From an uncultured Bacilli bacterium (GTDB lineage Bacteria; Bacillota_I; Bacilli_A; RF39; UBA660), in assembly GCA_947588865.1 (NCBI GenBank), contig CANPYQ010000001.1, forward strand, positions 1 to 36,877: DNA of 36,877 bases. The letters are read 5' to 3'. The notes under the pieces were generated by a model. It searched no databases. It saw only the letters and a list, made by a program, of their open reading frames with translations, and had not been told where the DNA came from. Positions 365 to 24,009 of the stretch are shown here, one piece after another. A program made the translations under genes and the position numbers. How positions within the stretch are numbered: position 1 is the first letter of the stretch; every line of letters begins with the position of its first letter.

Positions 365-438
365 ATAAGTAAAGTTTACTTGTTTTTTTATTTAGAATGA
401 TTTATAATAATATTATAATGAGATTGTAGGTGACAAAT

Positions 439-3171
439 ATGAAAAATAAAATTATGTATTTCGTTATAATAATTACTCTAAGTGTACTTTGTATGATACC
501 ATCAAAAGAAACAGTTAAAGCTTATGATGTTGAACCAAACTTTGACACTGGTGATTCTGGGGGCAGTAGCTCTTGTAATACACAAGCATGCGCAAATTCG
601 GAAAATATTGTTGATGGAATTACAGGGATTATATATGGACTCAGGATTTCTGTAGTGGATAGTACGGGTAAAGGTACAGTTAAAAATGCAAAAAATTTTT
701 GGGCTACAGAAAGTATGTACGATTTTTTCAAAAATTCAAAATCATATTCAGATAACAACAATCCAAGCCAATTAAAAATCTCTAAATGGGGCGGTGGCAT
801 GAGTTCGTACAAAACAAAATATGTAAAAGGGATTTTTAGTGAGATCGGTTATACCTTGCCCCAAAAGGCATATTCAGAGTTTAAAGAAAGCTTATCTGAA
901 TCTAATGGTAAAGTTTTAGAAATCATACTTAATGAATTTGGCATTACACCTAAAGAAGCTATTGAAAGCAATTATTGGTTAAAGGTAGAACCAATTTATG
1001 CTTTACATGAAAAATTTTATATGCATAATATTTTTTATTTTGGGACATCATCAGAAATTATGACGAGTATGGATAGTATGACAAAAAGAGCATGTTCCGA
1101 CTCTCGTTCTTGCTCATATGGTTCAGCTTTTTATGACGGCGGATGCATCGGAGATGTAGGGAGTGATTGGAATGTAGTTAGAAATTTTATAGTTTCAATT
1201 TATACGCCTTGTGATAGCCTAAAACCATCAGGTGTACCATGCTACGGAGGAAATGTAAGCTACTACAAGTCTTTTATTAATAATGGAGAATGTATTAATA
1301 ATGCGAAAAATTTGGTTGAAGGTTATAAAAAATCAGATGATGGTTTTCTTGGCTTAGGTGTGGGATATATAAAAATTAGCGATTATATAAAAAAAACATA
1401 TGTTAAAATAACAAAAACGGATAATCAAGGCAATACAATCACCAATCCAAAAGCAACCTTTAATTTTAAATTATTTAAAATTAATGATTATGATGGTTCT
1501 AAACAACAAATAAAAAATTTTACTTATTATGATAAACGAGATGATAATCCAAAAACATCAACTGCTGATGGTGTAATAGTATTTAACAATTCACAAAGTA
1601 GTATAATAATCGAATTGCCTATAGGCCACTATTATCTTGAAGAACAAGATCCAGATCCAGATAGCAAATATTATTATTATGTACATGATAAAAATGGTAA
1701 TAAATATGTTGACTTTAGAGTTGAATCTTATCACTCCTTAGACAATCCTAAAGATGTAAAAATTAAAAATTATACTGAATGTGAATATAGGCGTGATGTT
1801 ATATTAGCTAATTATAGCCAACTAACAATAGACCGAAAAAGGGCGTTGATAGAGTTGTATGAGGATCTTTTGGGGAGAAAATATAGTGAAGGTTCCATTG
1901 ATTATAGAGGACTTTTGGATTTTAGTAATCCAAAATGTGAAACAGTTAACAATGTATATTCTTCAACAATAGGTTGTTTAAAAGGTAGAATTAATGGTAT
2001 ATTTAAAGGTGAAGAAGATATAACTGAGAGCTCGTTTAACAGTGATAATATATCTGCATATACTGAGAAGGACAGCAAAGATGGTAATAAGGTGTATTGC
2101 CAAACTACTTATTCGTTAGATAACAAATTAGGTACAAGCTCGTTTAAGTCAAAAGCTGGACGAATGCCTATCCAAAAATTAACATTAGATGAGGCAGTAG
2201 CTACGGAAGGTACATTAACGATAAAATGTTTTGTATTGAATGAAAATACTTATAATAAAACTTATGATTATAAAGATTATGTAAAGAGTGTTAAATTCAA
2301 TAACGATCCTCTACCAGTTAGAGACGGTAAAAAGCTTAAAGAATTTGGTTCCACTGATACTAAATTTACTTTAAACAAAGACAGTGATAATTTTTATAAA
2401 GGTGAAAAAGCTATAGATTTTTACTTAAATCCTATATATTTGCATGTAGGGAATGGGAAATCACTAATTAAACAAGAAATGATAAATGATAGTAAATATA
2501 TATTTGCAGGTTATGGAATAATTAGCAAATTTACTAGCGAACTATCAGATAATGTTATTTATTTTAATGTAAACTACAAAGGTGAAGATTATAGTAGCGA
2601 TGCCTGCAAATATGATGTCACTCGAGAGCTAATTATACCAGAAGATCCTGATAATCCAGGTGATCCTGGTGATTATAAGTTAAATCTTGAATTTAGAATC
2701 ATTGATACACTTAATCCATTTCCAGGATATGACGGAAAAGGAAGACAAGTAGGCAAAAATTGGTGTGGAGGTAATATAGATTTTGATTATTTGTCAGAAA
2801 AAATACTAAATATTTTTTCTAAAATTGAAACTGTTGATGAAAAAAGTCTATATGATTATGATAAAAATGGAGATGGTGAAGTAAACGCAACAGATGCGTT
2901 TTATGTAAAACAACAGAAGGGTGAATATTGTAAAAATATTAATGAAAAAGTTGAAGAATTTATAACAAATAGAACAAATAGTTATGGAAGAAAGCCAAGT
3001 GATGGAACTACTGGTAAAGCAATATATACTATAGAGTTGACACCTGATAAAATAAAAGATATAAGAGGTTATAATAAAGATAACAGTTATGATGATTATG
3101 ATAAGTTAAAGTGTACTGATGGCAATGATTGCAAAAGTCAATTTTTGACTGACTATTTTGGAATTGAATAA
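439..3171 (+). CDS. Large secreted Cys-rich surface/adhesin-like protein with a SpaA/CnaB-type (prealbumin-fold) domain and one dockerin/EF-hand-like Ca-binding loop
   Basis: The ORF is 430-3171. The preferred start is ATG 439, 5 nt after AGGTGA (428-433). Signal peptide MKNKIMYFVIIITLSVLCMIPSKETVKA. The segment YVKITKTDNQGNTITNPKATFNFKLF...GHYYLEEQDPDPD resembles SpaA/CnaB domains. DYDKNGDGEVNATDAFYV is a single dockerin-type loop. No LPXTG motif and no C-terminal TM segment. Confidence 0.85.
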   Translation: MKNKIMYFVIIITLSVLCMIPSKETVKAYDVEPNFDTGDSGGSSSCNTQACANSENIVDGITGIIYGLRISVVDSTGKGTVKNAKNFWATESMYDFFKNSKSYSDNNNPSQLKISKWGGGMSSYKTKYVKGIFSEIGYTLPQKAYSEFKESLSESNGKVLEIILNEFGITPKEAIESNYWLKVEPIYALHEKFYMHNIFYFGTSSEIMTSMDSMTKRACSDSRSCSYGSAFYDGGCIGDVGSDWNVVRNFIVSIYTPCDSLKPSGVPCYGGNVSYYKSFINNGECINNAKNLVEGYKKSDDGFLGLGVGYIKISDYIKKTYVKITKTDNQGNTITNPKATFNFKLFKINDYDGSKQQIKNFTYYDKRDDNPKTSTADGVIVFNNSQSSIIIELPIGHYYLEEQDPDPDSKYYYYVHDKNGNKYVDFRVESYHSLDNPKDVKIKNYTECEYRRDVILANYSQLTIDRKRALIELYEDLLGRKYSEGSIDYRGLLDFSNPKCETVNNVYSSTIGCLKGRINGIFKGEEDITESSFNSDNISAYTEKDSKDGNKVYCQTTYSLDNKLGTSSFKSKAGRMPIQKLTLDEAVATEGTLTIKCFVLNENTYNKTYDYKDYVKSVKFNNDPLPVRDGKKLKEFGSTDTKFTLNKDSDNFYKGEKAIDFYLNPIYLHVGNGKSLIKQEMINDSKYIFAGYGIISKFTSELSDNVIYFNVNYKGEDYSSDACKYDVTRELIIPEDPDNPGDPGDYKLNLEFRIIDTLNPFPGYDGKGRQVGKNWCGGNIDFDYLSEKILNIFSKIETVDEKSLYDYDKNGDGEVNATDAFYVKQQKGEYCKNINEKVEEFITNRTNSYGRKPSDGTTGKAIYTIELTPDKIKDIRGYNKDNSYDDYDKLKCTDGNDCKSQFLTDYFGIE

Positions 3172-3239: not shown

Positions 3240-4805
3240 ATGATACTTAAAAAACCGTATGCATTTTTTATTAAGATGTTTAAGCCTATTCATTTAGTAT
3301 TGGCTTTGATTGTGGCTTATCTAATATTTTTAGAAAATAGAATACTAACATTTTTAAATGGGTATATGTATTCATCAATTGATACTTCCTTAAAAAATAT
3401 AAAGGGTAATTTAGCTAATAATTTTATATTTATTATTCCTATGTTAATAATTGTTTTATCATTACTCATATTGGGAGTAATGTTTAGGAAGAAGAAGCCT
3501 GTATTATTTTATTTTATAAATATATTTATATTTATTGTTTCAATAATAATAAATTTATATGTTTCTAATTTTTTAGGAGTTTTGGAACAATCTGTGGTAT
3601 CTATTAGAATTGTAAAATTAATGCATGATTTATTATTTATAAATATAATGCTTCAAAGTGTAATGTTTATATTCTTAATAATAAGGGGTATGGGTATTAA
3701 TTTTAAGAAATTTGATTTTAGTAATGATATTTCTAAATTTGAAATAAATGAAAGTGACGATGAAGAATTTGAATTAGATATTAATATAGATTTAGATGAG
3801 AACAAAAGAAAAAGAAAAAAGAATTTAAGGTATTTAAAATATACTTATATAGAAAATAAATTTATAATAAATATTGTTTTAATAATCTTTGTAATTATAT
3901 TGTCATTGGTAATTTATGGTATTATTAAAGTTTATTATAAAAATAATAAAGAAGGTAAAATTTATAGCGCCAATACATTTAGTTTTGGTGTGAATGAAAC
4001 TCTTATTTTAAATAGGGATTATAGTGGTAGAAAGTTAACTGATAATTATTTAATAGTAGTAAACACTTCTATTGCTTCTAATTATCAAGATAATATTTTA
4101 TATTTAAAGGATTTTAGTTTAAAAATAGGTAATGCTGTATTTAAACCTGTTACTGATTATGCTAAATCTTTAATAGATATAGGGAACGTATATAATGAAA
4201 CAGTATTACCTTTTGAATATACTAATTATTTATTTGTATATGAAATTCCAGAGAAATTTAAAACTAGTGATATGATATTTAGCTATAGTAATGAGGGTAA
4301 AAGTATTGATATAAAGTTGAAGCCTAAAGAGCAACAAAACAGTGATATTATTGTTGAAAAAAGCATTGGCGAAGAGATGCAGTTTAATGAATCTATTGGG
4401 GATATTAAATTTGAAATAAATGATTTTGAAATAAAAGATAGATATTTAGTTGAGTATAATTATTGCATAAATGATAATGATTGTATTTTATCTAAGGAGT
4501 ATTTAGTAGCTTCTATAAATGAAAATTTTGATAAATATATATTAAGACTAGATATTAATTATAATGATAATTCATCTTTAAAATTAAGTGATTTTTATGA
4601 TTTACTTGAAGGATTTGGTTCGATTCAGTATAAGATAAATGATTCATGGATTGTTCAATCTGATAATTTTGAGGAAATTAAGAGTTCTAAGGCAAATATG
4701 GGTAATAATATTTATATAGGTGTTAACTCTGAGGTTATGAATGCAACAAATATTAAATTTGTATTTAATATTAGGGGTTCTAGATATGAATATACAATAA
4801 AGTAG
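3240..4805 (+). CDS. Polytopic membrane protein with a C-terminal extracytoplasmic beta-rich domain (DUF4352-like pattern)
   Basis: RBS AAGGAGG (3227-3233) lies 6 nt before the ATG. There are about 5 N-terminal hydrophobic helices, an acidic/basic linker (DDEEFELDINIDLDENKRKRKK), another TM segment, then LIVVNTSIASNYQDNILYLKDFSLKIGNAVFKPV-type strands. Confidence 0.75.
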   Translation: MILKKPYAFFIKMFKPIHLVLALIVAYLIFLENRILTFLNGYMYSSIDTSLKNIKGNLANNFIFIIPMLIIVLSLLILGVMFRKKKPVLFYFINIFIFIVSIIINLYVSNFLGVLEQSVVSIRIVKLMHDLLFINIMLQSVMFIFLIIRGMGINFKKFDFSNDISKFEINESDDEEFELDINIDLDENKRKRKKNLRYLKYTYIENKFIINIVLIIFVIILSLVIYGIIKVYYKNNKEGKIYSANTFSFGVNETLILNRDYSGRKLTDNYLIVVNTSIASNYQDNILYLKDFSLKIGNAVFKPVTDYAKSLIDIGNVYNETVLPFEYTNYLFVYEIPEKFKTSDMIFSYSNEGKSIDIKLKPKEQQNSDIIVEKSIGEEMQFNESIGDIKFEINDFEIKDRYLVEYNYCINDNDCILSKEYLVASINENFDKYILRLDINYNDNSSLKLSDFYDLLEGFGSIQYKINDSWIVQSDNFEEIKSSKANMGNNIYIGVNSEVMNATNIKFVFNIRGSRYEYTIK

Positions 4806-4812: not shown

Positions 4813-5478
4813 ATGAAAAGAAAAATAATATTTTTACTTGTTTTAATGTTTATTATGAAATTAAATGCTTCTGCTTTAACTTATGGTGGATGTGAGTATT
4901 CAACTATATCTAGATTAAAATCTTTAGTTACTAATGTAAATATTAGTTATAGTTATCATATGGAAGGAAATGAGCCATATTTTGATGTTACTCTTACTAA
5001 TATAACACCTGATATGTATTTTAAGGATACATTAACTAATACAATTTATAATTATGATAATACAAATAATGGGGAAATAACTATTACTAATTATAAAGGA
5101 TATTCTGGTAGCTATAAATTTTATTCAACTAATGGTGCTTGTTACGGAATCTCACTTGGAACTAAGTATTATAAATTTCCTTCATATAATAATTACTATA
5201 CAGATGAACAGTGTGCTGATATAAAAAATTATAGTTTATGCCAAAAATGGGTAAATGTAAATTATAATTATGATGAATTTTCAAAACTTATTGCTGAATA
5301 TAAAGAAAGCTTAAATGCTAAAGATGATGATGAACTCGATGTCGAATATAATAATGGGCTTTTAAATACTATTATTAGTTTTTATACAAAATACTATTAT
5401 TTAATATTAATTGGTATTATACTAATTTGTAGTGTGATTATATTTATAAATAGAAGAAGAAATAAATTTGATTTGTAA
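4813..5478 (+). CDS. Surface protein with an N-terminal signal peptide and a C-terminal TM anchor
   Basis: RBS AGGTGA lies upstream. Signal peptide MKRKIIFLLVLMFIMKLNASA. C-terminal segment YYYLILIGIILICSVIIFINRRRNKFDL. There are 4 extracytoplasmic Cys. The gene starts 7 nt after the previous stop. Confidence 0.75.
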   Translation: MKRKIIFLLVLMFIMKLNASALTYGGCEYSTISRLKSLVTNVNISYSYHMEGNEPYFDVTLTNITPDMYFKDTLTNTIYNYDNTNNGEITITNYKGYSGSYKFYSTNGACYGISLGTKYYKFPSYNNYYTDEQCADIKNYSLCQKWVNVNYNYDEFSKLIAEYKESLNAKDDDELDVEYNNGLLNTIISFYTKYYYLILIGIILICSVIIFINRRRNKFDL

Positions 5479-5509: not shown

Positions 5510-5545
5510 TAATTATAGTAGATGTTATTAAAGTAGGTGATAAGT

Positions 5546-5947
5546 TTGAAAGAATCTATGTGGGGGTATGCAGTTATTACGTTAGGTATACTAGCTGTTG
5601 GTATTATTTGGTTCTTTGCAAATGTAACAAGAACAGATCAACATAATTATAATTTACTTAAAGAGACCGTTGAAGCTTCTATGTTTGATGCACTTGATTT
5701 GTCTGCTTATAGAAAAGATGGAACGGTTAAGATTATAGAAGCAAAATTTGTTGAAAATTTTATTAGAAGATTTGCGGAAAATGCTGATTTATCTAATGAT
5801 TATAAAATAGAAATATTCGATGTAAATGAAACACCACCTAAAGTAAGTTTGAGAGTTTCAAGTAGAAATTCAACGGGGGTAACAGGAGAAATGGTTGATT
5901 TTAATATAGTTAATAATATAGATGCTATATTGGAAACAAAGTATTGA
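5546..5947 (+). CDS. Pilin-like / TadE-TadG-like protein with an MKESxxG leader
   Basis: The ORF track starts at GTG 5537. I prefer TTG 5546, 5 nt after AGGTGA (5535-5540), which gives MKESMWGYAVITLGILAVGIIWFF. This parallels the leaders of the genes at 9766, 10387 and 10859. Confidence 0.7.
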   Translation: MKESMWGYAVITLGILAVGIIWFFANVTRTDQHNYNLLKETVEASMFDALDLSAYRKDGTVKIIEAKFVENFIRRFAENADLSNDYKIEIFDVNETPPKVSLRVSSRNSTGVTGEMVDFNIVNNIDAILETKY

Positions 5948-5962
5948 GAGGAGAATAAAAAG

Positions 5963-6832
5963 ATGAATAATTTTGTTATAGGTTTAAAAAGATTTTTTAC
6001 GAATAAGAATGTTGTTACTATTATATTAGTATTAGTTATTTTAGGCATTCTTTATTATGGATACAGTTCTAGTATAAAAAAGCAAACTAATCCAGTTAAT
6101 ATGCCTGTTGCAGCGCATACTATAAGTTCTAGAACACAGGTTACTGATGAAGATGTAATGTATACAACTGTTGCAAATAGTATGATAGGCGAAGGTGCTA
6201 TACGTAATTCAAATGATATAATAGGTAAATATACTAATGTTAATGTTACTATTCCAACTGGAAGTATATTTTATAGTGAATGGTTATCTGATGAGGATGA
6301 TATTCCAGGAAATTGGATTGAGCAATTAGACTATAAAAAAGGTGAATTAGGATATTATATGGATGTAAGTGTAGAAAGCACTTTAGGTAAATCAGTACTT
6401 CCAGATACATATATAGATATATTTATGAAGGCAACTGATGAAAACGGAACTGTTATGTTTGGTAAACTTATGAAAAATGTAAAAGTTTTAGTTGTACATG
6501 ATGGGGATGGTAATAATGTATTTGATAATGCAGCTGAGATAGGAACACCATCTAAGATTGGTTTTGCAGTAAGCCAGGATTATTATATATTACTTAAAAA
6601 AGCAGAATATTTGGATGTAGAACTTGTTTTAGCACCTCGTGGATCTACAATTCCAAGTCAAGATTATGTTATTGTTACAAGTTCAACATTAAGAGATTAT
6701 ATTGATGCTCAAACTATAACTGTTGAAGAAGATATTATTGCTGAAGAAATAAATGATAACGATAAAAACAATGAGAATCAAGATAATGCAGAAGGTAATA
6801 CAGATCAAAATAATCAAAATGCTACTGAGTGA
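5963..6832 (+). CDS. CpaB/RcpC-like Flp pilus assembly protein (N-terminal TM plus SAF-like domain)
   Basis: RBS GAGGAG. N-terminal TM segment VVTIILVLVILGILYY. PVAAHTISSRTQVTDEDVMYTTVANSMIGEGAIRNSNDIIGKYTNVNVTIPTGSIF follows the CpaB SAF-domain pattern. It sits directly upstream of the Tad ATPase. Confidence 0.7.
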   Translation: MNNFVIGLKRFFTNKNVVTIILVLVILGILYYGYSSSIKKQTNPVNMPVAAHTISSRTQVTDEDVMYTTVANSMIGEGAIRNSNDIIGKYTNVNVTIPTGSIFYSEWLSDEDDIPGNWIEQLDYKKGELGYYMDVSVESTLGKSVLPDTYIDIFMKATDENGTVMFGKLMKNVKVLVVHDGDGNNVFDNAAEIGTPSKIGFAVSQDYYILLKKAEYLDVELVLAPRGSTIPSQDYVIVTSSTLRDYIDAQTITVEEDIIAEEINDNDKNNENQDNAEGNTDQNNQNATE

Positions 6833-6836
6833 TTAA

Positions 6837-7961
6837 ATGCACGATAATATATTTGAAGGAATGGACTTTGGTCCGTTAAAAGAATATTTAGAAAATGATG
6901 ATATTACCGATATTTCTTATAGCAATAACGGGCAGGTTTGGTTGAAAACTTTATCAAAAGGAATTTTTAGAATTGAAAATCCAGCTATAAATAATGCATT
7001 TATGGAGAAACTTGCATTTCAATGTTCAAATGTTATGGGAAAAAGTTTTAATGCTGCACATCCTTTTTTGGATAGTGAGAGTGCAGAATTACGTATGAAT
7101 TTTGTCCATGATTCTATTGCAAAAAATGGAATCGCTTGTGTTATACGTAAAACACCGGCAAAAATTCGTTTAGAGAGAAACAAAATATTAAAAGAAAAAT
7201 ATATTACAGAAGACATATTGGACTTTTTAATAACTTGTGTACATGGACATTGTAATATAATTGTATGTGGAGAAACTGGATCTGGTAAGACAGAGTTCGT
7301 AAAATTCTTAGCTTCAAATACTTATGAAAATGAAAAATTAATAACTATAGAAGATACTTTGGAACTGCACTTGGATAGGATATATCCAAATAGAGATATT
7401 GTTGCTATGAAAACTAACAATATTGCTAGTTATTCAGATGTTCTAGTTACTTGTATGAGACAGAATCCTAAATGGATATTATTATCAGAGGTTCGTAGTG
7501 CAGAGGCTGTTATGGCTGTTAGAAACTCTATTTCTTCAGGTCACTATATATTATCAACTATACATGCTGATAAAGCAGCTTCTATTCCAAATCGTATGTA
7601 TAGTTTGCTTGAAACTAATCAAGATATTGAACAATTTTTGAAATCTATTTATAGATATATTCAAATAGGAGTATATATAAGGGGATATCAGGATAAAATT
7701 TCAAAGAGCTTTGTAAGAGAAATTGCTGAAGTTACAGAATTTTATGTAACTGAGGATAATGAAGCAAAATATAATACTTTGTATAAAAAAACTCCCGATG
7801 GAACTGTTTATAGGAAAAACCCAAGTAAATATTTAATAGAATATTTAGAGGCACAGGGAACGGTTTTACCAACAGGATTTATAAAAGAGGAATATGATAA
7901 AGATAATAAAGTTGTTGAAAAAAAATCTTTAAATGATAATAACGAAATAATTTTTGAATAG
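6837..7961 (+). CDS. CpaF/TadA-type (VirB11-superfamily) secretion ATPase
   Basis: Walker A GETGSGKT, Asp box TIEDTLEL, Walker B region RQNPKWILLSEVR, His box LSTIHA. It is followed by two TadB/C-like genes. Confidence 0.9.
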   Translation: MHDNIFEGMDFGPLKEYLENDDITDISYSNNGQVWLKTLSKGIFRIENPAINNAFMEKLAFQCSNVMGKSFNAAHPFLDSESAELRMNFVHDSIAKNGIACVIRKTPAKIRLERNKILKEKYITEDILDFLITCVHGHCNIIVCGETGSGKTEFVKFLASNTYENEKLITIEDTLELHLDRIYPNRDIVAMKTNNIASYSDVLVTCMRQNPKWILLSEVRSAEAVMAVRNSISSGHYILSTIHADKAASIPNRMYSLLETNQDIEQFLKSIYRYIQIGVYIRGYQDKISKSFVREIAEVTEFYVTEDNEAKYNTLYKKTPDGTVYRKNPSKYLIEYLEAQGTVLPTGFIKEEYDKDNKVVEKKSLNDNNEIIFE

Positions 7962-7972
7962 GAGGGAACAAT

Positions 7973-8875
7973 ATGAATATAACTATAATTTTTATAATTG
8001 TGTCTATACTAGCTATATTCCTAATTATATATAGGAGTAGTATTGGTGAACAAACTTATAAATATATAAGTACACAAAGTAGAAGATTATATAGTAAAGT
8101 TGCTCCTTATACATATAAAGAAATAAGAAAAAAAATAAAAGAATTAAAGCAAGATTATACAGTAACTCAGTATATTGGACAAGTAATATTATTTGCGGTA
8201 GGAGCTGGGGTCGTAACATATTTGTATTTTTACAGTTTAGTTGTATCTATAATTTATGCTGTACTTGCAGTCACAGCGGTACCATATATTAATTATTTAA
8301 GATGCAAAAGACTTTATAGCGAATTTATATTTGAACAAGTCCAAGTATATACGACAAATGTTATAATGGAGTTTGCGACAACTCAAAGTTTCGTTAAGTC
8401 ACTTGAAGGTGTGTATTCATCTGGTATATTGGAAGATCCTGTTAAACAAGACGTTAAAGCTATGATTGATATGGCATATGAGAATGGTACAATAAATCAA
8501 TCACTAGAGTATATGAACGAAAAATACGATTTTTATATGGTAAAAAATATGCATCAATTATTTTTACAAATAACTAATGAAGGATCAAAAGATGCTAGTG
8601 ATTCACTTGAAAATATGTCACTTGATATAGATATGCTTGTAGAAGCAGTTTATAGAGATAGGTTGGATAGAGAAGCCTTTTATAAAAAATTTATTAAATT
8701 TGGTTTAATATTATATTTGATGATAGGATTAGTACAAATAATGTTAGGAGACACATATCATAGTATGCTTAATTTATGGTATGTTAGACTTTTGTTACAT
8801 ATAATTGTAATTATAAATACTTATTTCTTATTATCTGGTACTAAATTTTATAATGAGAATGTGGGGGCTGAATAA
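7973..8875 (+). CDS. TadB-like (GspF/T2SSF-domain) pilus platform membrane protein
   Basis: RBS GGAGGG. The layout is N-terminal TM, central TM pair, a helical cytoplasmic domain (FEQVQVYTTNVIMEFATTQSFVKSLEGV...INQSLEYM) and C-terminal TM segments. This architecture and position are typical of TadB. Confidence 0.7.
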   Translation: MNITIIFIIVSILAIFLIIYRSSIGEQTYKYISTQSRRLYSKVAPYTYKEIRKKIKELKQDYTVTQYIGQVILFAVGAGVVTYLYFYSLVVSIIYAVLAVTAVPYINYLRCKRLYSEFIFEQVQVYTTNVIMEFATTQSFVKSLEGVYSSGILEDPVKQDVKAMIDMAYENGTINQSLEYMNEKYDFYMVKNMHQLFLQITNEGSKDASDSLENMSLDIDMLVEAVYRDRLDREAFYKKFIKFGLILYLMIGLVQIMLGDTYHSMLNLWYVRLLLHIIVIINTYFLLSGTKFYNENVGAE

Positions 8876-9666
8876 TGGAATTTTTAATAGTTACAATATT
8901 AATAATAATTATAGTTATTGTTAATAATATAGTTGATACTAGACGTTTTTTCGAACAAGTCAATCCATTCTTACAGAAATTTATGGAAAAAGACTATGAA
9001 TTCTTGCTTAGAGTAAAATATAAAGATAAGGATTTGGATGTAAATGCTCTTTTTTCAAGAAGAATAAGAGATGGTATTATAACTGCTGCAGTGTTAATAT
9101 TTCTTTTAGCGGTTACTGGGTATTTGAACTATATGTGGGCATTTGGTGCTTGCATAGGCGGATTTTTAGTATTTAAAAGTGGTTATACTAAGTTAAAAAC
9201 TTTTTATAAAGCAAGATTACATACAATGGATTCTATGCTTCCATATTATTTAAAGAGTTTGGAAATTTTAGTACAGCATTATACAGTTCCAGTTGCTCTA
9301 TCAAGAAGTATAGATACTGCTCCAGAGATATTTAGACCTGGACTTAGGAAATTAGTTGCTAGAATAGATGAAGGTGATGCATCTATTCAACCATATATTG
9401 ATTTTGCAAATGAATATCCAGTTAGGGATTCTATGCGTATGATGAGACTTTTATATCGTTTAGGATTAGGCTCAAATCAAGACAAACACGAGCAGATAAT
9501 GATGTTTTCAAAGACTGTATCATCACTTCAAAATAAAGCCCGTGAACAAAAATATAAAGACCGTTTAGAGTCTATGGAAAAAAGAACCATGATAATGTTG
9601 TTCGTAACAGGTGGTGGCGTTTTACTAGTTTTATTTATGTCAATGTCTGTTATGATGGGAATATAA
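8875..9666 (+). CDS. TadC-like (GspF/T2SSF-domain) pilus platform membrane protein
   Basis: TAATG stop/start overlap with the previous gene. The topology is the same TM / cytoplasmic helical domain / TM layout (LPYYLKSLEILVQHYTVPVALSRSI...PGLRKLVARIDEG). Confidence 0.7.
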   Translation: MEFLIVTILIIIIVIVNNIVDTRRFFEQVNPFLQKFMEKDYEFLLRVKYKDKDLDVNALFSRRIRDGIITAAVLIFLLAVTGYLNYMWAFGACIGGFLVFKSGYTKLKTFYKARLHTMDSMLPYYLKSLEILVQHYTVPVALSRSIDTAPEIFRPGLRKLVARIDEGDASIQPYIDFANEYPVRDSMRMMRLLYRLGLGSNQDKHEQIMMFSKTVSSLQNKAREQKYKDRLESMEKRTMIMLFVTGGGVLLVLFMSMSVMMGI

Positions 9667-9699
9667 TGTAAAAAAAATGTAAATAATATAATTAAAGTA

Positions 9700-9729
9700 T
9701 TGATTTTAATACTTTGATTGTTGTATAAT
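9700..9729 (+). promoter_or_regulatory. Dedicated promoter for the candidate major pilin gene
   Basis: TTGATT (9700-9705), 18-nt spacer, TATAAT (9724-9729). An 8-bp inverted repeat, aaagtatt (9694-9701) / aatacttt (9708-9715), overlaps the -35 element. Confidence 0.55.
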
Positions 9730-9765
9730 TAGTTTAGGATATTTAGAAAGTAGGTGAGGTTTTAA

Positions 9766-10032
9766 ATGAAAGAAGCAGCAGGAGAAGCAAATATGACAGT
9801 AATAACAATAGTTTTAATAGCTATAGTACTTGCAATCGGAACAATTATAGTAACTAATATGATGAACAATACTGGAAAAAATTCTGCTTGTTCAAGTGCA
9901 GGTGGTGTATGGAATAGTGGTAAATGTTATGCAGCAAGTTCATGTAAATACGATAATGGAAAAACTACGTGCTCAGGAACTACTTTAAGTTGTAAGGAAT
10001 CTGGTAATGATTGGATATGTGAATCAAAATAA
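9766..10032 (+). CDS. Small pilin-like protein (candidate major Flp-like subunit) with a Cys-rich head
   Basis: RBS AGGTGAGG. MKEAAG leader, hydrophobic helix EANMTVITIVLIAIVLAIGTIIV, then about 50 aa containing 6 Cys. The gene has its own promoter and terminator. Confidence 0.75.
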   Translation: MKEAAGEANMTVITIVLIAIVLAIGTIIVTNMMNNTGKNSACSSAGGVWNSGKCYAASSCKYDNGKTTCSGTTLSCKESGNDWICESK

Positions 10033-10050
10033 ATTTTTATTAAAAATTCG

Positions 10051-10073
10051 AGAGGGTATTTACCTTCTTTTTT
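10051..10073 (+). terminator. Rho-independent terminator after the pilin gene
   Basis: agagggt (10051-10057) pairs with accttct (10062-10068), including one G-U pair, around a 4-nt loop. A T5 run follows (10069-10073). Confidence 0.5.
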
Positions 10074-10320
10074 GTGCCGTAAATACGAATTTTATTACTA
10101 TTAAAGTTTTTTAACTGAAAAAAATTTTTATGTGAACCCCAAGTAGAAGACATTATGGCACTCTTAGGCTATTACTTAAAAGCCCATACTGTAATATAAA
10201 TTGAATCGTCGTAGGTGGCGTGAGAGGTATAAATATAAAATAGAAAGCTTTATTTAATTTTCTCTACTCGTTTATTAACACTAATTTGAATAAAAAATTT
10301 AAACGATTGACATAATATCA

Positions 10321-10350
10321 TTGACAAAACTTCTTTACAACTGTTATAAT
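10321..10350 (+). promoter_or_regulatory. Near-consensus sigma-A promoter for the minor-pilin / tadZ / VirB2-like operon
   Basis: TTGACA (10321-10326), 18-nt spacer, TATAAT (10345-10350). A second TTGACA lies at 10307-10312. Confidence 0.6.
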
Positions 10351-10386
10351 TATATAGGTATATAATAAGAAAAGAGGTAATGAGAA

Positions 10387-10839
10387 GTGAAAGAAAGCGT
10401 AGGTTATACAGTTACATTAAATATTGCGATAATGTTTATTATAATAGTTTTTGCTTTCCTTGCTGCAGCTCTTATATATTATAAAAGTAATAAAGTTAAT
10501 AATGTAATAATTAATTCACTAGAAAAGTATGAAGGATTTAATGATTTAGCTATTAATGAAATAAATAATAGTATGACAACTTTAGGCTATAATAGACATT
10601 CAATTAATTGTGGTGATAATATCAGTGATGATGGAAATGCATGTACATTAGTAGGTGACGGAGATAGTAAAGATAATGGTTATTGTGTTTATGTTTGTGT
10701 AGAAGAAAATAAGGATTACTATTATTTTAGGGTAAAGTCTTATATGATGATCAATGTACCTATTATAAATGAAATTTTAAATATTCCAATATTTTCAAAT
10801 TCAAATAGATTATATGATTTTGGCGATAGTTTTAAATGA
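10387..10839 (+). CDS. Minor pilin-like (TadE/TadF-like) protein, paralog 1
   Basis: GTG start after AGAGGT. MKESVG leader plus hydrophobic helix. It shares CVY, YYYF/YK-VK-[ST]-Y and PII-[NG]-E-[IL] motifs with the next gene. 4 Cys. Confidence 0.75.
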   Translation: MKESVGYTVTLNIAIMFIIIVFAFLAAALIYYKSNKVNNVIINSLEKYEGFNDLAINEINNSMTTLGYNRHSINCGDNISDDGNACTLVGDGDSKDNGYCVYVCVEENKDYYYFRVKSYMMINVPIINEILNIPIFSNSNRLYDFGDSFK

Positions 10840-10858
10840 TATTTAGGGATGTGATACT

Positions 10859-11290
10859 GTGAGAGAGGCAATAGGGAGTAGTTTATTACTTAGTGTGGTT
10901 GTTGTTTTTGTAGGACTAATAATATTATTTTTTGTAAATATATTATCTTATTCTAAAGCTTATAAAGCTAAGAATAGAATAATAGAAATTATTGAAAAAT
11001 ATGAGACATATTCAGAATCAAATTCAGAATCCAGTGAGTTAAATGAAATAAAGCAATCTTTACAAGATATGGGTTATCAGACGGGTGAATGTAAAAATGA
11101 GGATTCTAAAGATAATATAGCAAATAGTGGATATAAATATTGCGTTTATAGAATTGATGAAGAAGGCGGAACATATTATTATAAAGTAAAAACTTATGTT
11201 CAGTTCTATTTTCCAATAATAGGTGAACTCTTTAATCCACCGGTACAAAGTGAAACTAAAATATTAGGGAAAAGCTATGATTATGATTGA
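10859..11290 (+). CDS. Minor pilin-like (TadE/TadF-like) protein, paralog 2
   Basis: GTG start. MREAIG leader plus hydrophobic helix. Clear paralog of 10387-10839 (GYKYCVYRIDEEGGTYYYKVKTYVQFYFPIIGELFNPP). 2 Cys. Confidence 0.75.
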   Translation: MREAIGSSLLLSVVVVFVGLIILFFVNILSYSKAYKAKNRIIEIIEKYETYSESNSESSELNEIKQSLQDMGYQTGECKNEDSKDNIANSGYKYCVYRIDEEGGTYYYKVKTYVQFYFPIIGELFNPPVQSETKILGKSYDYD

Positions 11291-11304
11291 AAAGGGGAAA
11301 TATA

Positions 11305-12309
11305 ATGAATGTAATAGTGTCAAATAAAAATCAAATGTTGCTGGAAAATTTGGGCATAGATGTTATAAAAGAGATGAATGGTGAGTTTGATGTTGATGAA
11401 ATTATAGCTACTTTTCAAAACTTTTTTTACCAACGTATGATTTTAGATATTACTGCAATAAAAGATTATAGAAATATAAATAATTTGCAAAAATTATCTA
11501 TATCTTTAGATATGAGTAAAGTAATATTATTATTAGATGGCACAAATGATACTATGAATCCAGTGTTTTTATCTAATTTGGTATCTATGGGTATTTATAA
11601 TTTTACTAAAAATGTAGAAGGTATACAGTATCTTTATAATACTCCTAATACGTATCGAGATGTGGCACAATTTCATAGTTTAAATTCATCTTTAAGTGGT
11701 TCACAACCTGAACAACCTAACCCACAAGCTAGGTATATAGCTCCAGTGGTTACTAATTCAGAATCTGATTCGGATTTTTATGGAACTAGAATAATAGGTG
11801 TTAAAAATGTTACAAAGCAATCTGGTGCAAGTAGTTTAGTTTATATGATGAAAAATGAATTAGGTAAAAATTATGATGTAGTGGCTATTGAGGTAGATAA
11901 GACGGATTTTGTTTATTTTAAAGATAAATCTTTAGTATCTACAATTACTAGTGAAATTGGCACTGTTATAAATAAATATAAGAATAAAGATATAATACTT
12001 GTGGATATAAATAATAGCTTAGTTGCAGAAGGATTTTGTCAAGATGTTTTATATCTTGTAGAACCTACTATAATAAAGTTACAAAAATTAATGACTTTGA
12101 ATGCTGCAGCACTTCATAATTTAAAGAATAAAAAAATAATTTTAAATCAAAGTTTACTTAGCAGTAATGATGTCGCTAATTTTGAATATGAGGCAAGAAT
12201 AAAAGTGTTTTATAATTTGCCTCCATTAAATGAAAGAGATAAAAATATACCTGAACTTAACAATTTATTGATAAAGCTTGGATTTACTAAACAAAAATCA
12301 AATACGTAG
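11305..12309 (+). CDS. TadZ/CpaE-like protein: receiver-like N-domain plus a ParA/MinD-like domain with a degenerate P-loop
   Basis: The ORF track starts at TTG 11287. I prefer ATG 11305 after GGGGA (11294-11298). The N-domain has a CheY-like strand pattern (VIVSNK, MILDITA, KVILLLDG, GIYNFTKN). The C-domain RIIGVKNVTKQSGASSLVYMM...YDVVAIEVD...IILVDIN follows a ParA layout but lacks GK[ST]. Confidence 0.6.
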   Translation: MNVIVSNKNQMLLENLGIDVIKEMNGEFDVDEIIATFQNFFYQRMILDITAIKDYRNINNLQKLSISLDMSKVILLLDGTNDTMNPVFLSNLVSMGIYNFTKNVEGIQYLYNTPNTYRDVAQFHSLNSSLSGSQPEQPNPQARYIAPVVTNSESDSDFYGTRIIGVKNVTKQSGASSLVYMMKNELGKNYDVVAIEVDKTDFVYFKDKSLVSTITSEIGTVINKYKNKDIILVDINNSLVAEGFCQDVLYLVEPTIIKLQKLMTLNAAALHNLKNKKIILNQSLLSSNDVANFEYEARIKVFYNLPPLNERDKNIPELNNLLIKLGFTKQKSNT

Positions 12310-12317: not shown

Positions 12318-12767
12318 ATGAAAAATATATTTAAAATAGTTTTAAATTTTGTTTTAATATTTATAATAAACTTTATTTTTCTTGACTTTGTACATGCAAT
12401 TCAGTATAATAATTTTGATGAATCGGAATTTGTTAGTTGTGGTGAGAAACTAATTGACAATATTCCAGCAGTTCTTCCTAATGTAGTAAGTAAAATATAT
12501 TTGATTGTTCAAGTGGCAGTTCCTATAGTGCTAGTTATAATTGGTAGTATTGGTTTAATAAAATGTATAGTCGCATCTAAGGAAGATGAAATAAAAAAAG
12601 AACAACAAATTTTGATTAAAAGAGTTGTTTCAGCAGTAATTATATTTTTTATATTTACTGTAGTTAAATTTTTAATTAGTTTAGTTGCAGATAATAATAA
12701 TATTTTGGAATGTGCGGAATGTTTTATAGAAAACAATGATAAATGTGTTGTACAAAAAAATAACTAA
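12318..12767 (+). CDS. VirB2/TrbC-like two-TM pilin-like protein, paralog A
   Basis: RBS GGGGGA. Signal peptide, Cys near the mature N-terminus, TM1 VAVPIVLVIIGSIGLIK, loop SKEDEIKKEQQILIKR, TM2, and C-terminal ECAECF...KC. Confidence 0.7.
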   Translation: MKNIFKIVLNFVLIFIINFIFLDFVHAIQYNNFDESEFVSCGEKLIDNIPAVLPNVVSKIYLIVQVAVPIVLVIIGSIGLIKCIVASKEDEIKKEQQILIKRVVSAVIIFFIFTVVKFLISLVADNNNILECAECFIENNDKCVVQKNN

Positions 12768-12782
12768 GGAGTTACGGGAGTT

Positions 12783-13193
12783 ATGAAAAAGAAAGCGTTA
12801 AATATATTTATTCTTTTTACTGTGTTTTTTCCAGTTATAAGTATACATGCTATTGAAAAGGTATCTTGTGGGAATGTCACAGCTATTCCAGCTAAAATAC
12901 CAGAACTTACTAACTTTATTATGACTTTGGTTGAGGTTTTAGTACCTATTATTTTAGTTATAATGGGATCAATAGATTTAATAAAAGGAATATCATCACA
13001 GAAAGAAGATGAAATAAAAAAAGGGCAACAAATTTTGATAAAAAGAATTATTGTAGCAGTTATAATATTTATTGTAATAGTTGCAGTTAAATTTTTAGTT
13101 AGTATTGTTAATAATCCTGTTAATAGTAATAATATAGTTGATTGTATAGATTGTTTTTTGAATGGAAAGGAAAATTGTAAAAAGTGGAGGTAG
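12783..13193 (+). CDS. VirB2/TrbC-like two-TM pilin-like protein, paralog B
   Basis: Signal peptide, SCG, TM1 VLVPIILVIMGSIDLIKG, loop SQKEDEIKKGQQILIKR, TM2, and C-terminal DCIDCF...NC. Confidence 0.7.
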   Translation: MKKKALNIFILFTVFFPVISIHAIEKVSCGNVTAIPAKIPELTNFIMTLVEVLVPIILVIMGSIDLIKGISSQKEDEIKKGQQILIKRIIVAVIIFIVIVAVKFLVSIVNNPVNSNNIVDCIDCFLNGKENCKKWR

Positions 13194-13198
13194 TAATT

Positions 13199-13612
13199 AT
13201 GAAGAAAAAAATTTTATTTGTCGTTCTTTTGGGAATTTTAACTTTTAGCTTTTGTTCACCTGTTTTTGCTAAAAACATTTCATCTTGTGATTCTGTAATC
13301 TCAAGTAATGTTATAATAGATGAAAAAATACCAAATATAGTTAGTACTATTATAACAGTTATAAAGGTAGCTGTACCAGTATTATTGGTTATATTTGGAA
13401 TGATTGATTTAATGAAGGGTATAACATCACAAAAGGAAGATGAAATAAAAAAAGGACAATCATTATTTATAAAAAGACTTATATCAGGGGCTCTTGTGTT
13501 TTTTGTATTTACAATTGTACAATTAATTATAAGCTTTGTATCAGATGACGCTGATAACAATATAATGACTTGTGCTAGCTGTTTTATAAATAAAGAATGT
13601 CAATACAAATAA
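13199..13612 (+). CDS. VirB2/TrbC-like two-TM pilin-like protein, paralog C
   Basis: The ORF track starts at 13184. I prefer ATG 13199 after GGAGG. Signal peptide MKKKILFVVLLGILTFSFCSPVFA, SCD, TM1, loop SQKEDEIKKGQSLFIKR, TM2, and C-terminal TCASCF...EC. Confidence 0.7.
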   Translation: MKKKILFVVLLGILTFSFCSPVFAKNISSCDSVISSNVIIDEKIPNIVSTIITVIKVAVPVLLVIFGMIDLMKGITSQKEDEIKKGQSLFIKRLISGALVFFVFTIVQLIISFVSDDADNNIMTCASCFINKECQYK

Positions 13613-13628
13613 ATTATTAGGAGGATTT

Positions 13629-14741
13629 ATGGTTGATGCGTTAAAAAAACTAGATAAAAAATTTTTAATAATTGCTGGATGCATGGTTTTTTTACCAATT
13701 TTGTTTATTATTATTCTTGCTATTGTTCAAGGGTGTAGCAATAAAAAATTAACATATGAAAAATATGAAAGTAAAATGATTTCTGCGGCAGAAAAATATA
13801 TTAAAAAAGAAGATAAGAAACTTACAAACGAGGGTGAAAGTTATATAATTGACCTTAGCACATTAGTTGATAGTGATTATATTAAAGCAACAGAAGATGC
13901 ACTTGATGATACTTGTACTGGAAAAGTTATAGTTAGAAGAAATGGTTCATCAATCAAATCCAACGATGGAGGCTTTTTAAACTATATTCCATCGTTAAAA
14001 TGTGAGGGTTATAATTCAAATTCATTAATTAATTTAATAACTAAGAATATTGTTACTAGTGAATCTGGTTTATATAAAAATGGTGATGAATATATATTTA
14101 GGGGATCTAAAGTAGATAATTATATATCTTTCTTTGGTAAAGATTATAGGATACTTGGCGTAGATAGAAATGGGTTTGCTAAATTAATAGCGTCACAAAG
14201 TGACAGTGTCGATGTTTCTTGGGATATGAAATACAGTATAGAAACTAAAAGAGATACAGGCATAAATATATATAAAGATAGTAATATCCACGATAAATTA
14301 CTTGAATATTATGGTAATAAGAAGAAAATTTCACAAGATGCAAAAAAACATATTGTAGCGAATGATATATGTATAGGTAAGAGATATATTAATGATACTT
14401 CTCTTACTAGTGAATCCGATTGTTCACAAATTCTTAAAAATGAAATAATTACACTGATTAATATAACTGATTTTGCTAAAGCTAGTTTGGATAATAATTG
14501 TACAAGCATTGTTGCTAATTCTTGTAGGAATTATAACTATTTAAAAGCTTTGGGATTATGGACATGGACTGTTAATGGTGTAACAGATAATTCTTATGAA
14601 GCTTATTATTTGGGAAATGGAATAATAAGACATCAGGAAGCAAGTTCAAATGAATCATATAATGTTGTTATCCATATAGATTCTAATGAAATAGTTTTAT
14701 CTGGGGATGGATCTAAAAAAAATCCATATGTTATAAAATAA
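13629..14741 (+). CDS. Membrane-anchored (possibly lipoprotein) Cys-containing extracytoplasmic protein of unknown function
   Basis: RBS AGGAGG. N-terminal TM segment ending in IVQGC (imperfect lipobox). The following segment ISAAEKYI...LSTLVDSDYIKA...CTGKVIV loosely resembles the head start of type IV pilin-like proteins. 6 further Cys. Confidence 0.7.
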   Translation: MVDALKKLDKKFLIIAGCMVFLPILFIIILAIVQGCSNKKLTYEKYESKMISAAEKYIKKEDKKLTNEGESYIIDLSTLVDSDYIKATEDALDDTCTGKVIVRRNGSSIKSNDGGFLNYIPSLKCEGYNSNSLINLITKNIVTSESGLYKNGDEYIFRGSKVDNYISFFGKDYRILGVDRNGFAKLIASQSDSVDVSWDMKYSIETKRDTGINIYKDSNIHDKLLEYYGNKKKISQDAKKHIVANDICIGKRYINDTSLTSESDCSQILKNEIITLINITDFAKASLDNNCTSIVANSCRNYNYLKALGLWTWTVNGVTDNSYEAYYLGNGIIRHQEASSNESYNVVIHIDSNEIVLSGDGSKKNPYVIK

Positions 14742-14761
14742 ATTTATAAAATTGTTTAATG

Positions 14762-14790
14762 TTGACATTTGATGAAAAAAAATATATAAT
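14762..14790 (+). promoter_or_regulatory. Perfect-consensus sigma-A promoter driving paralog D
   Basis: TTGACA (14762-14767), 17-nt spacer, TATAAT (14785-14790). The spacer contains an A8 run (14775-14782). Confidence 0.7.
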
Positions 14791-14813
14791 GTCTTTAGGA
14801 TGGAGGAGAAAAA

Positions 14814-15185
14814 ATGTTATTAAAAATCGATACTCAAGGGCTATATACTTGTGGTAATTTAAATTTTGAGTTTTCTGGAACTTTTCCATATATAGTTAAT
14901 ATGGCAATTACTATTATAAAAATAGTTGTTCCTATTTTATTAATTATATTTGGAATGTTGGATTTGGGTAAAGCTGTTGTTGCATCTAAAGAAGATGAAA
15001 TAAAAAAGGGTCAACAAACTTTTATAAAAAGAGTAATAGCAGCTGTAATTGTATTTTTTGTAATTCAAATAGTTCAAATTGTAATTTCATTTGTTTCTAA
15101 TAAAGATCCAAATGTTGTAAATTGCTTTAATTGTTTTGTAAATGCCGATACCGAAAAAGGTTGTATTGATTTAGCTGGTGAGTAG
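14814..15185 (+). CDS. VirB2/TrbC-like two-TM pilin-like protein, paralog D (no N-terminal signal peptide)
   Basis: RBS GGAGGAG. TCG, TM1 IVVPILLIIFGMLDLGK, loop SKEDEIKKGQQTFIKR, TM2, and C-terminal NCFNCF...GC. The gene is flanked by its own promoter and a strong terminator. Confidence 0.75.
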   Translation: MLLKIDTQGLYTCGNLNFEFSGTFPYIVNMAITIIKIVVPILLIIFGMLDLGKAVVASKEDEIKKGQQTFIKRVIAAVIVFFVIQIVQIVISFVSNKDPNVVNCFNCFVNADTEKGCIDLAGE

Positions 15186-15191
15186 ATTATT

Positions 15192-15225
15192 AGTACGAAT
15201 AATATTGATTATTTGTACTTTTTTT
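15192..15225 (+). terminator. Strong rho-independent terminator after paralog D
   Basis: agtacgaataa (15192-15202) pairs with ttatttgtact (15209-15219): 11 bp including one G-U pair, 6-nt loop, then T6 (15220-15225). Confidence 0.75.
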
Positions 15226-24001: not shown

Positions 24002-24009
24002 GAGAATTT

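Follow-up and report, generated by a model that had tools for sequence, protein, structure and literature searches.

Four pilin-like proteins with a common short leader in a divergent Tad-like locus of an uncultured bacterium of the Bacilli

The window analyzed here is a 36.9-kb stretch of DNA that makes up the whole contig CANPYQ010000001.1 of an uncultured Bacilli bacterium of the RF39 lineage (assembly GCA_947588865.1). It harbors a group of genes around a secretion or pilus ATPase gene, and four genes of this group encode proteins that begin with a common short leader. To judge from sequence evidence, these four genes probably, though by no means certainly, encode the subunit set of a divergent Tad-like machine of the type IV filament superfamily, the leader being cleaved by a peptidase encoded elsewhere. 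The set would comprise one small major subunit (9766), two paralogous minor subunits, designated minor C (10387) and minor D (10859), and one modular subunit of the DUF5411 family (5546).

The shared leader and its conservation

The original prediction was that four pilin-like proteins share a noncanonical leader and that their starts, chosen with the help of ribosome-binding sites (RBSs), are TTG 5546, ATG 9766, GTG 10387 and GTG 10859. The leaders were present in the sequence as written (the slash marks the end of the leader):

DUF5411 protein (TTG 5546): MKESMWG/YAVITLGILAV
Major subunit (ATG 9766): MKEAAG/EANMTVITIVLIAIV
Minor C (GTG 10387): MKESVG/YTVTLNIAIMF
Minor D (GTG 10859): MREAIG/SSLLLSVVVVF

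Each leader follows the formula M-[KR]-E-[AS]-x(1,2)-G/A/S, comprises 6-7 hydrophilic residues and is followed by a hydrophobic stretch of about 20-24 residues, which is uncharged in all four proteins. Below, the last leader residue is designated -1 (a putative position), and the first residue after it is designated +1.

The window was scanned with the pattern M[KR][ED][AS]x(1,2)[GAS] followed by 18 uncharged residues. Exactly four of the 506 open start positions on the two strands matched, and 200 shuffled sequences gave none. With a relaxed motif, no fifth protein family carrying the leader was detected in the first 85 related loci.

Conservation of the leader was studied in 80 related loci retrieved through the ATPase. 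These were the best 80 of at least 576 matching stretches in species-representative genomes, and their ATPases were 75-94% identical to that of the window. The four proteins were mapped onto the stop-to-stop open reading frames (ORFs) of these loci, which gave 297 orthologs in total. Orthologs of all four proteins aligned from residue 1 and had the same start codon position. In addition, each of the four starts had an in-frame stop 0-4 codons before it and an RBS of the AGGTG/GAGGT type 6-12 nt upstream (AGGTGA at 5534-5539 for the DUF5411 gene). The ortholog comparison, the upstream stops and the RBSs thus upheld all four predicted starts, and the shared leader proved to be conserved. The conserved positions were as follows:

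Major subunit, n=81: K/R at position 2 in 81/81; E/D at position 3 in 81/81; G/A/S at -1 in 81/81 (G 80, S 1); E7 in 81/81; T11 in 81/81
DUF5411 protein, n=79: K/R at position 2 in 75/79; E/D at position 3 in 76/79; G/A/S at -1 in 77/79 (G 53, A 19, S 5); S4 in 76/79; W6 in 79/79
Minor C, n=69: K/R at position 2 in 59/69; E/D at position 3 in 45/69; G/A/S at -1 in 69/69 (G 66); N12 in 61/69
Minor D, n=68: K/R at position 2 in 64/68; E/D at position 3 in 63/68; G/A/S at -1 in 67/68 (G 58); N12 in 42/68

Hence, a small residue was present at the putative -1 position in 294 of the 297 orthologs when G, A and S were counted and in 283 when only G and A were counted.

An internal ATG at 5558 was considered as the start of the DUF5411 gene and rejected: Met5 is usually F, I or V in the orthologs, and the Pfam match extends from residue 1.

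The prediction had also pointed to the non-ATG starts of the three other genes and had related them to a built-in stoichiometry of major and minor subunits. These starts are real in the window. However, they are not conserved: ATG is used by most orthologs of minor C (65/69), minor D (59/68) and the DUF5411 protein (46/79), as it is by those of the major subunit (74/81). The proposed role of start codons in subunit stoichiometry was therefore abandoned. GTG on both minor genes recurs in a distant locus, L087, where the leaders read MKEATGELN[MV]T (two copies), VREAIGG..., VRESIGA... and MKESYWG....

According to Pelicic (PMC10191384), a class III signal peptide (SPIII, IPR012902) consists of a hydrophilic leader with Gly or Ala as its last residue and of 20-25 hydrophobic residues behind it; Glu5 is frequent but can be missing. 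In the four proteins, a hydrophilic or neutral leader ending in a residue of this kind was found, and so was the following stretch of 20-25 mainly hydrophobic residues; the predicted class III architecture thus fits this definition. Glu was absent from +5, this position being Thr in 81/81 major subunits and hydrophobic or polar but uncharged in the other three families.

It had been predicted as well that the leader fits neither the G/XXXXEY motif of Flp pilins nor the G/FTLxE motif of type IVa/b pilins, and this was confirmed. After the Gly, the major subunit reads EANMTV, with Thr at +5 and Val at +6. At E<=0.1, none of the four proteins matched Flp_Fap (PF04964), TadE (PF07811) or, in Pfam and NCBIfam, N_methyl. 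Nor was N_methyl among the most frequently matched families when 56 homologs of the major subunit and 88 homologs of minor D were scanned at E<=1. A polar residue was present near +5 (Thr at +5 in the major subunit, Asn at +6 in the minor subunits), and the Glu at +1 of the major subunit was invariant. Taken by its sequence, the leader appears to be a distinct signal variant that fits no described class of pilins.

In a profile-profile comparison of the DUF5411 protein with minor D, residues 1-18 aligned and nothing else did. Since these two proteins share only residues 1-18, it was ruled out that the four proteins are simple paralogs. The sharing of the N-terminal ~18 residues alone among otherwise unrelated proteins appears to be the pattern of pilins.

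Properties of the putative subunits

The family of the major subunit contains 1376 homologs, none of which has a Pfam domain or a name. The orthologs are Cys-rich proteins of 56-95 amino acids (aa), and their N-terminus, MKEA[AT]GE[AG][NS][ML]T, is nearly invariant in all 81 of them. Identity to the protein of the window falls from 92% in residues 1-12 to 52% in residues 13-35 and 21% from residue 39 to the end. The number of Cys residues is even (0, 2, 4 or 6) in 81/81 orthologs, which implies that the tail is extracellular and disulfide-bonded. Tandem copies of the gene were found in 10 of 71 loci. With this conservation gradient, the duplication, the even Cys counts and a promoter-like site and terminator-like hairpin of its own, the 88-aa protein seems to behave like a major pilin. 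The only NCBIfam match was weak (TIGR03816, E=0.038). Matches below the Pfam gathering scores were found among the 56 homologs scanned, namely AtDEF-like (14/56, best 2.6e-5), FeoB_associated Cys-rich membrane protein (11/56) and YxzE-like putative bacteriocin (4/56), and were attributed to the Cys and transmembrane (TM) composition of these proteins.

Minor C and minor D are paralogs of each other. Most orthologs of minor C contain two or four Cys residues, and in minor D, C78 and C95 are invariant. The 115 homologs of minor D carry no Pfam domain and no name; among the 88 of them that were scanned, faint sub-threshold matches to Pilin_N (8/88) and DUF4320 (4/88) were seen. A PDB sequence-profile search with minor D gave nothing useful.

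The protein encoded at 5546 is an unambiguous member of the DUF5411 family (PF17424, E=8e-51; score 171.9 bits, cut-off 30), residues 1-133 corresponding to profile positions 1-134. Clustered at 50%, this family gives 574 representatives, and clustered at 90%, it gives 4192 clusters. Among 150 of the representatives at 50%, nearly all begin with MKE[SA]xWG at residue 1. Many homologs are longer (200-1664 aa), and those scanned carry Big_2, Flg_new (Listeria-Bacteroides repeat), InlK_D3 and PT-HINT domains. Such fusions speak for a C-terminus outside the cell and for a module that displays variable domains. Unfused DUF5411 proteins have two genetic partners, namely a signal-peptide protein of 870-1120 aa and an anchored protein of 200-250 aa, and the secreted protein of 870-1120 aa lies directly 5' of the DUF5411 gene in distant genomes. 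By analogy, this genetic pairing resembles modular or tip pilins. It is suggested by these sequences that DUF5411 is a pilin-like N-terminal module which anchors or presents extracellular domains.

Two homologs, P0279 and P0320, have the DUF5411 module fused to Big_2 and a C-terminal pretoxin-HINT domain, an architecture of polymorphic toxins, which suggests that some members of the family may deliver toxins. In the loci L081-L086 (for example, L081:6074-10414 and L084:6783-10417), which belong to Firmicutes and bear sporulation genes, a three-gene DUF5411 module is found with no pilus ATPase nearby. Its order is a signal-peptide protein of ~200-230 aa with a C-terminal anchor, a secreted protein of 870-1076 aa and DUF5411. 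In L081, a genuine Flp gene (MKKLNNKG/QALVEY) lies 9 kb from the DUF5411 module.

AlphaFold2 (AF2) models of minor D and the DUF5411 protein were built with deep alignments. The model of minor D (predicted local distance difference test score, pLDDT, 84; predicted template modeling score, pTM, 0.74) contains helices at 2-48 and 59-71, followed by strands, and that of the DUF5411 protein (pLDDT 78, pTM 0.64) contains a helix at 2-48 and three strands. The order of secondary structure elements in both models, namely a 47-residue N-terminal helix, short helices and a three-stranded sheet, fits that of the pilin "lollipop" fold, whose globular beta-sheet head packs on the C-terminal half of the long helix. 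As a Foldseek search of the PDB with both models gave no pilin (see below), the term pilin-like fold would refer to this order of elements only.

Organization of the locus

The following features were assigned:

430..3171, + strand: secreted, Cys-rich surface protein of 913 aa (N-terminal signal peptide; weak Pfam matches only)
3240..4805, + strand: membrane protein of 521 aa, N-terminal multi-TM region and C-terminal domain (orthologs in 62 loci)
4813..5478, + strand: protein of 221 aa with a signal peptide and a C-terminal TM anchor, just upstream of DUF5411 (61 loci)
5546..5947, + strand: DUF5411 protein, 133 aa, TTG start (Pfam PF17424)
5963..6832, + strand: CpaB/RcpC-like bitopic protein, 289 aa (weak profile matches)
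6837..7961, + strand: secretion/pilus ATPase of the TadA/CpaF-FlaI-VirB11 clade, 374 aa (Pfam T2SSE)
7973..8875, + strand: polytopic membrane protein, 300 aa, tadB position (position and topology only)
8875..9666, + strand: polytopic membrane protein, 263 aa, tadC position (position and topology only)
9700..9729, + strand: promoter-like site TTGATT-18-TATAAT upstream of the major gene (10/12 matches)
9766..10032, + strand: putative major pilin, 88 aa, ATG start (leader motif and ortholog conservation)
10050..10069, + strand: terminator-like hairpin, then a T-run, 3' of the major gene
10321..10350, + strand: sigma-70-type promoter-like site TTGACA-18-TATAAT with TG, upstream of the minor pair (perfect, 12/12)
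10387..10839, + strand: minor pilin-like protein C, 150 aa, GTG start (69 orthologs)
10859..11290, + strand: minor pilin-like protein D, 143 aa, GTG start (115 homologs)
11287..12309, + strand: cytoplasmic protein of ~335-340 aa that closes the module (orthologs in 65 loci)

Thus, the gene order around the TadA/FlaI/VirB11-type ATPase is tadA-tadB-tadC-flp-tadE-tadF-like. Tad systems were considered as defined by Denise et al. (PMC6668835), and the TadA/CpaF-type ATPase expected of them is present: the ATPase matched Pfam T2SSE above the cut-off (2.2e-26). Its NCBIfam matches, VirB11 (2e-33, the best) and the TadA family (4.5e-26), were both below their cut-offs, and among PDB proteins, FlaI (4e-17) and Cag-alpha (1e-15) were found beside CpaF (2e-16), FlaI and VirB11 scoring as well as CpaF. 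By its sequence, this ATPase is a clear member of the CpaF/FlaI/VirB11 clade. The two polytopic proteins are putative platform proteins by position and topology only; no TadB/TadC-like paralogy between them was detectable by profile-profile comparison. The CpaB/RcpC-like protein matched TIGR03177 pilus_cpaB (5.4e-4), FlgA/SAF (3e-4) and Pfam RcpC (0.084), all weakly, and its ortholog in L087 has a weak RcpC match in its annotation. By analogy with Tad loci, the protein encoded at 11287 could be a TadZ-like organizer.

Orthologs of the 913-aa protein were found in 18/80 loci, and this protein is part of the upstream module accompanying DUF5411. No Pfam match was obtained for the 521-aa protein. 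A protein of 200-250 aa resembling the 221-aa one is also present in the DUF5411 module of distant genomes.

The claim that the major gene has its own promoter and terminator stood in that a promoter-like site (9700-9729) and a terminator-like hairpin (10050-10069) flank this gene, but such a site does not set it apart, as the minor pair has its own 12/12 promoter-like site at 10321-10350. Promoter-like sites were not enriched in this AT-rich region (65 found vs 54±6 in shuffled sequences). The gap between the major and minor genes, 10033-10386, is an unusually long (~350 nt) noncoding stretch, which opens with the terminator-like hairpin and closes with the perfect sigma-70-type promoter-like site. 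An Rfam search over the whole window, including this gap, found nothing.

The window has a G+C content of ~27% and is nearly all coding on the + strand. At its 3' end lie housekeeping genes (RNase R, two CapA-like genes, SmpB and SpoVG), and the locus is therefore chromosomal. Plasmid searches by DNA and by DUF5411 protein gave zero matches, so there is no evidence for a plasmid system. The CapA-like genes, at 33623-35916, are two tandem CapA/PGA_cap paralogs of 381 aa each, both with an N-terminal membrane anchor.

Directly downstream of the Tad-like module, at 12318-27091, a Gram-positive-type type IV secretion gene set was found. It includes four T4SS_pilin/VirB2-like paralogs (12318, 12783, 13196 and 14814) sharing a QKEDEIKKGQQ motif, a TrbL/VirB6-like gene at 15276, a small VirB3-like membrane protein at 17414, a VirB4-like ATPase in two ORFs (199 aa at 17652 and 594 aa at 18251), a CHAP hydrolase at 20056, an M23 peptidase with a lysozyme-like tail at 22742 and VirD4 at 24989. 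No relaxase or integrase was seen in this region. The VirB3-like ORF (17414-17734) and the listed ORF 17652-18251 overlap by 83 nt, and the second probably begins in truth at an ATG farther downstream. A fifth T4SS_pilin-domain protein (30319-31419; Pfam 3.8e-6, above the cut-off), with a Cys-rich N-terminal extension of ~280 aa, is encoded 3 kb past VirD4, amid the housekeeping genes. The pairing of the Tad-like module with type IV secretion genes is kept in close relatives (e.g., L041) and absent in L087, where the whole module (L087:4998-17039) includes two major-subunit paralogs and a second CpaB-like gene upstream.

Processing of the leader and alternative explanations

Under the favored explanation, the short class III-type signal would insert the proteins with the N-terminus in and the C-terminus out. 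A prepilin peptidase of the A24 family, supplied from elsewhere in the genome, would cleave after the conserved small residue, and the ATPase together with the two polytopic proteins would then extract the subunits from the membrane and polymerize them. The minor subunits and the DUF5411 module may form a tip or priming complex that shows variable extracellular domains. On sequence grounds, cleavage by an unlinked A24 peptidase is slightly more likely than not.

Several results weigh against this explanation. As had been predicted, no A24 peptidase is encoded in the window, Pfam being negative for all ORFs, and no polytopic protein with the GxGD[..][KR] motif was found when all ORFs of the window were scanned. 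The same motif was absent from ORFs of >=80 aa in 81 loci. An inventory of polytopic proteins in 85 loci revealed, as recurrent ones, only homologs of window proteins. The Pfam annotations of L081-L087 listed no A24 peptidase, and none was found in another 80 loci, 654 kb in all, which a metagenome scan gave for the homologs of a canonical prepilin-type protein of 500 aa; in total, these searches covered 167 loci (87 related loci at ±10 kb and 80 prepilin-homolog loci) rather than whole genomes. Among the other components, neither polytopic protein matched T2SSF in Pfam, the mark of a Tad platform protein, or anything among the PDB profiles, which also gave nothing for the CpaB-like protein. 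The 11287 protein had no match in Pfam, NCBIfam or the PDB profiles. None of the four leader-bearing proteins matched an archaeal class III profile in Pfam or NCBIfam, and a Foldseek search of the PDB with the AF2 models of minor D and the DUF5411 protein found no pilin and nothing significant (best E 0.29 and 0.04, respectively). In other Firmicutes, DUF5411 travels with a secreted protein of ~900-1100 aa without the ATPase. Finally, the length of the leader is invariant, and the spacing of Glu3 is fixed from the N-terminus, not from the Gly (-4 in three families, -5 in DUF5411), a constancy that would be unusual for a leader that is merely removed.

The lack of a linked peptidase is not a strong argument against processing, because the Tad prepilin peptidase can be an unlinked "loner" or shared between systems, and MSH loci always lack one (Denise et al., PMC6668835). 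Moreover, canonical prepilin genes were found in several relatives. In L041, a canonical G/FTL[IV]E prepilin gene lies inside the locus, between minor C and minor D; in L077 and L088, such genes occupy the place of the 913-aa secreted protein of the window; in L078, one is located a few kb upstream; and in L011 and L067, they are present elsewhere within ±10 kb. A prepilin peptidase should therefore be encoded in those genomes, in which two classes of N-termini coexist. The coordinates of the canonical prepilins are L041:13760-15328; L077:4828-6330; L078:122-1714 and 1873-2283; and L088:3080-4612. Their leader is ...K[KR]G/FTL[IV]E, and most are ~500 aa long with a conserved C-terminal domain (HPAFTFG...GFWVGKFE...MKNMEWGA).

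Prepilin peptidases are strict on the -1 residue and tolerant at +1. In favor of cleavage, a small residue exactly at the junction of leader and helix is nearly universal in the four families, and the leader length is like that of type IVa/Com pilins.

The most serious alternative, rather unlikely as a whole, is that the four proteins are filament subunits which are never processed. Met-Lys-Glu would be a ready-made mature terminus, Glu3 would stand in for Glu5 and neutralize the charge of the neighboring N-terminus, and no peptidase would be needed. The failure to find a peptidase in or near any of the 167 loci is in line with this, as are the constant leader length and the tying of Lys2 and Glu3 to the N-terminus in four otherwise unrelated families. 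Residue 3 is acidic in 100/96/93% of the major/DUF5411/minor D orthologs and in only 65% of those of minor C, a shortfall that recalls the single Glu5-less tip subunit of known systems (PMC10191384). In addition, after the putative cleavage, the helices of the three non-major proteins would contain no acidic residue at all, which points toward an uncleaved N-terminus. However, subunits of this kind have no precedent in any type IV filament, processing being a prerequisite according to PMC10191384. The small residue at the junction in 294/297 orthologs would be expected of a peptidase site, the canonical prepilins in the same operon (L041) and in neighboring positions make the presence of a peptidase probable, and Lys2 is common anyway in this AT-rich genome.

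A second alternative, which we consider unlikely, is that no filament is made and that the four proteins, bitopic and anchored by the N-terminus, serve the ATPase machine or the neighboring type IV secretion system as accessory or scaffold components, the common N-terminus being an insertion or docking motif. The full Gram-positive-type type IV secretion gene set directly downstream, the VirB11 family as the best NCBIfam match of the ATPase and the occurrence of DUF5411 without the ATPase in other genomes agree with such a role. No structural match to pilins was obtained, and the DUF5411 model gave several weak Foldseek matches to ketosteroid-isomerase- and SnoaL-type proteins, which are NTF2-like and have what we take to be the fold of VirB8. 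On the other hand, L087 contains the module with the same leaders and without type IV secretion genes downstream (this locus also has the spore-coat gene CotZ). In its conservation gradient, its tandem duplication and its hypervariable Cys-rich tail, the 88-aa protein is typical of a polymerized, surface-exposed subunit. The sharing of the N-terminal ~18 residues alone by four otherwise unrelated proteins is the pattern of pilins, and the fusions of DUF5411 to adhesin and pretoxin domains fit a fibre or surface display.

For the 88-aa protein only, it is highly improbable that it is a Sec-exported Cys-rich peptide (bacteriocin- or defensin-like) or a membrane-anchored Cys-rich protein with an ordinary signal peptide or anchor: the even Cys counts and the AtDEF-like, FeoB_associated and YxzE-like matches would suit it, but all these Pfam matches are below gathering scores, conservation of 92% in the first 12 residues against 21% in the tail is the reverse of that in a Sec signal peptide, and the N-terminal motif is common to three other proteins of the locus.

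Comparison with known systems

The closest system is the Tad/Flp pilus of monoderms, and the leader format is closest to that of type IVa/Com pilins. Monoderm Tad loci, known from Bifidobacterium and Actinobacteria, have the arrangement tadZABC-flp-tadEF. As in these Tad/Flp (type IVc) pili, an ATPase, two polytopic proteins, a small major gene that is sometimes duplicated and two larger minor genes are found in the present locus; a CpaB/RcpC-like gene lies upstream, the peptidase can be apart from the locus, and there is no secretin. Unlike Tad/Flp loci, the present one lacks the G/XXXXEY motif and matches to Flp_Fap, TadE and T2SSF, and TadZ is not recognizable. Its leader is 6-7 residues long and nearly invariant, its major subunit has a Cys-rich globular tail, and it contains an extra DUF5411 subunit and an upstream three-gene module.

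In type IVa/Com pilins (IPR012902/N_methyl), as here, a hydrophilic leader of 5-7 residues, which may contain Glu and ends in Gly or Ala, precedes ~21 hydrophobic residues, and the N-terminal module alone is common to otherwise unrelated subunits. The leader of ComGC, for example, reads MNEKG/FTLVE. In contrast, positions +1 to +5 of the present proteins are EANMT or polar-x-hydrophobic and not FTLxE, Glu5 is absent, and there is no profile match; the canonical G/FTLxE proteins form a separate class beside them in the same genomes.

Archaeal type IV pilins and archaellins resemble the present set in that they have no conserved Glu5, in that the ATPase is as near to FlaI as to CpaF and in the few faint Pilin_N matches of minor D. 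Archaeal class III signals carry a charged residue at -2 ([KRDE][GA]). The residue at -2 is A, I, V or W in the proteins of the window, which differ from the archaeal signals in this respect.

Modular minor pilins are known as the bimodular pilins of Streptococcus sanguinis. Adaptable "Tips" have been described for the Kil Tad pilus of Myxococcus (PMC12075869). DUF5411 has in common with both that a pilin-like N-terminal module is fused to, or paired by its gene with, large variable extracellular domains. In contrast to them, it shows no sequence similarity or detected fold similarity to these pilins and is often encoded away from the pilus ATPase.

Miller et al. 2022 (PMC9523054) described a "postulated secretion-related system" from Roseburia, Ruminococcus and Eubacterium, an operon of 8-9 genes that encodes CpaF, a PilC/GspF-like protein, DUF5411 and an internalin-like protein. 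According to the passage on this operon, its remaining genes have no significant resemblance to known components. The operon probably belongs to the same system family as the present locus. In the same passage, the shared leader motif, an interpretation of the products as pilins and a lineage of the RF39 type do not appear. The shared leader and the reading of these genes as pilin genes thus appear to be undescribed, PMC9523054 being the only literature trace found.

Biological meaning of the locus

The system is widespread yet little described, with at least 576 ATPase matches in species-representative genomes, ~4200 DUF5411 clusters at 90% and 1376 homologs of the major subunit. As far as can be judged from these sequences, it appears to be a variant form of the type IV filament machinery, as yet undescribed and frequent among gut Firmicutes. 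If the four proteins are pilins, then the present detection rules, which rely on Glu5, the Flp motif and the N_methyl, TadE and T2SSF profiles, overlook an entire clade of type IV filaments of gut Firmicutes, and this clade would include uncultured Bacilli with reduced genomes. The leader motif provides a simple handle for finding subunits and for tests of what a prepilin peptidase actually requires. If the subunits were in fact never processed, one of the four components held to be universal in the type IV filament superfamily would be removed. To judge from the adhesin and pretoxin-HINT domains fused to DUF5411, the system may be a fibre or surface device displaying exchangeable effectors, and such a device would be relevant to gut colonization and to competition between bacteria.

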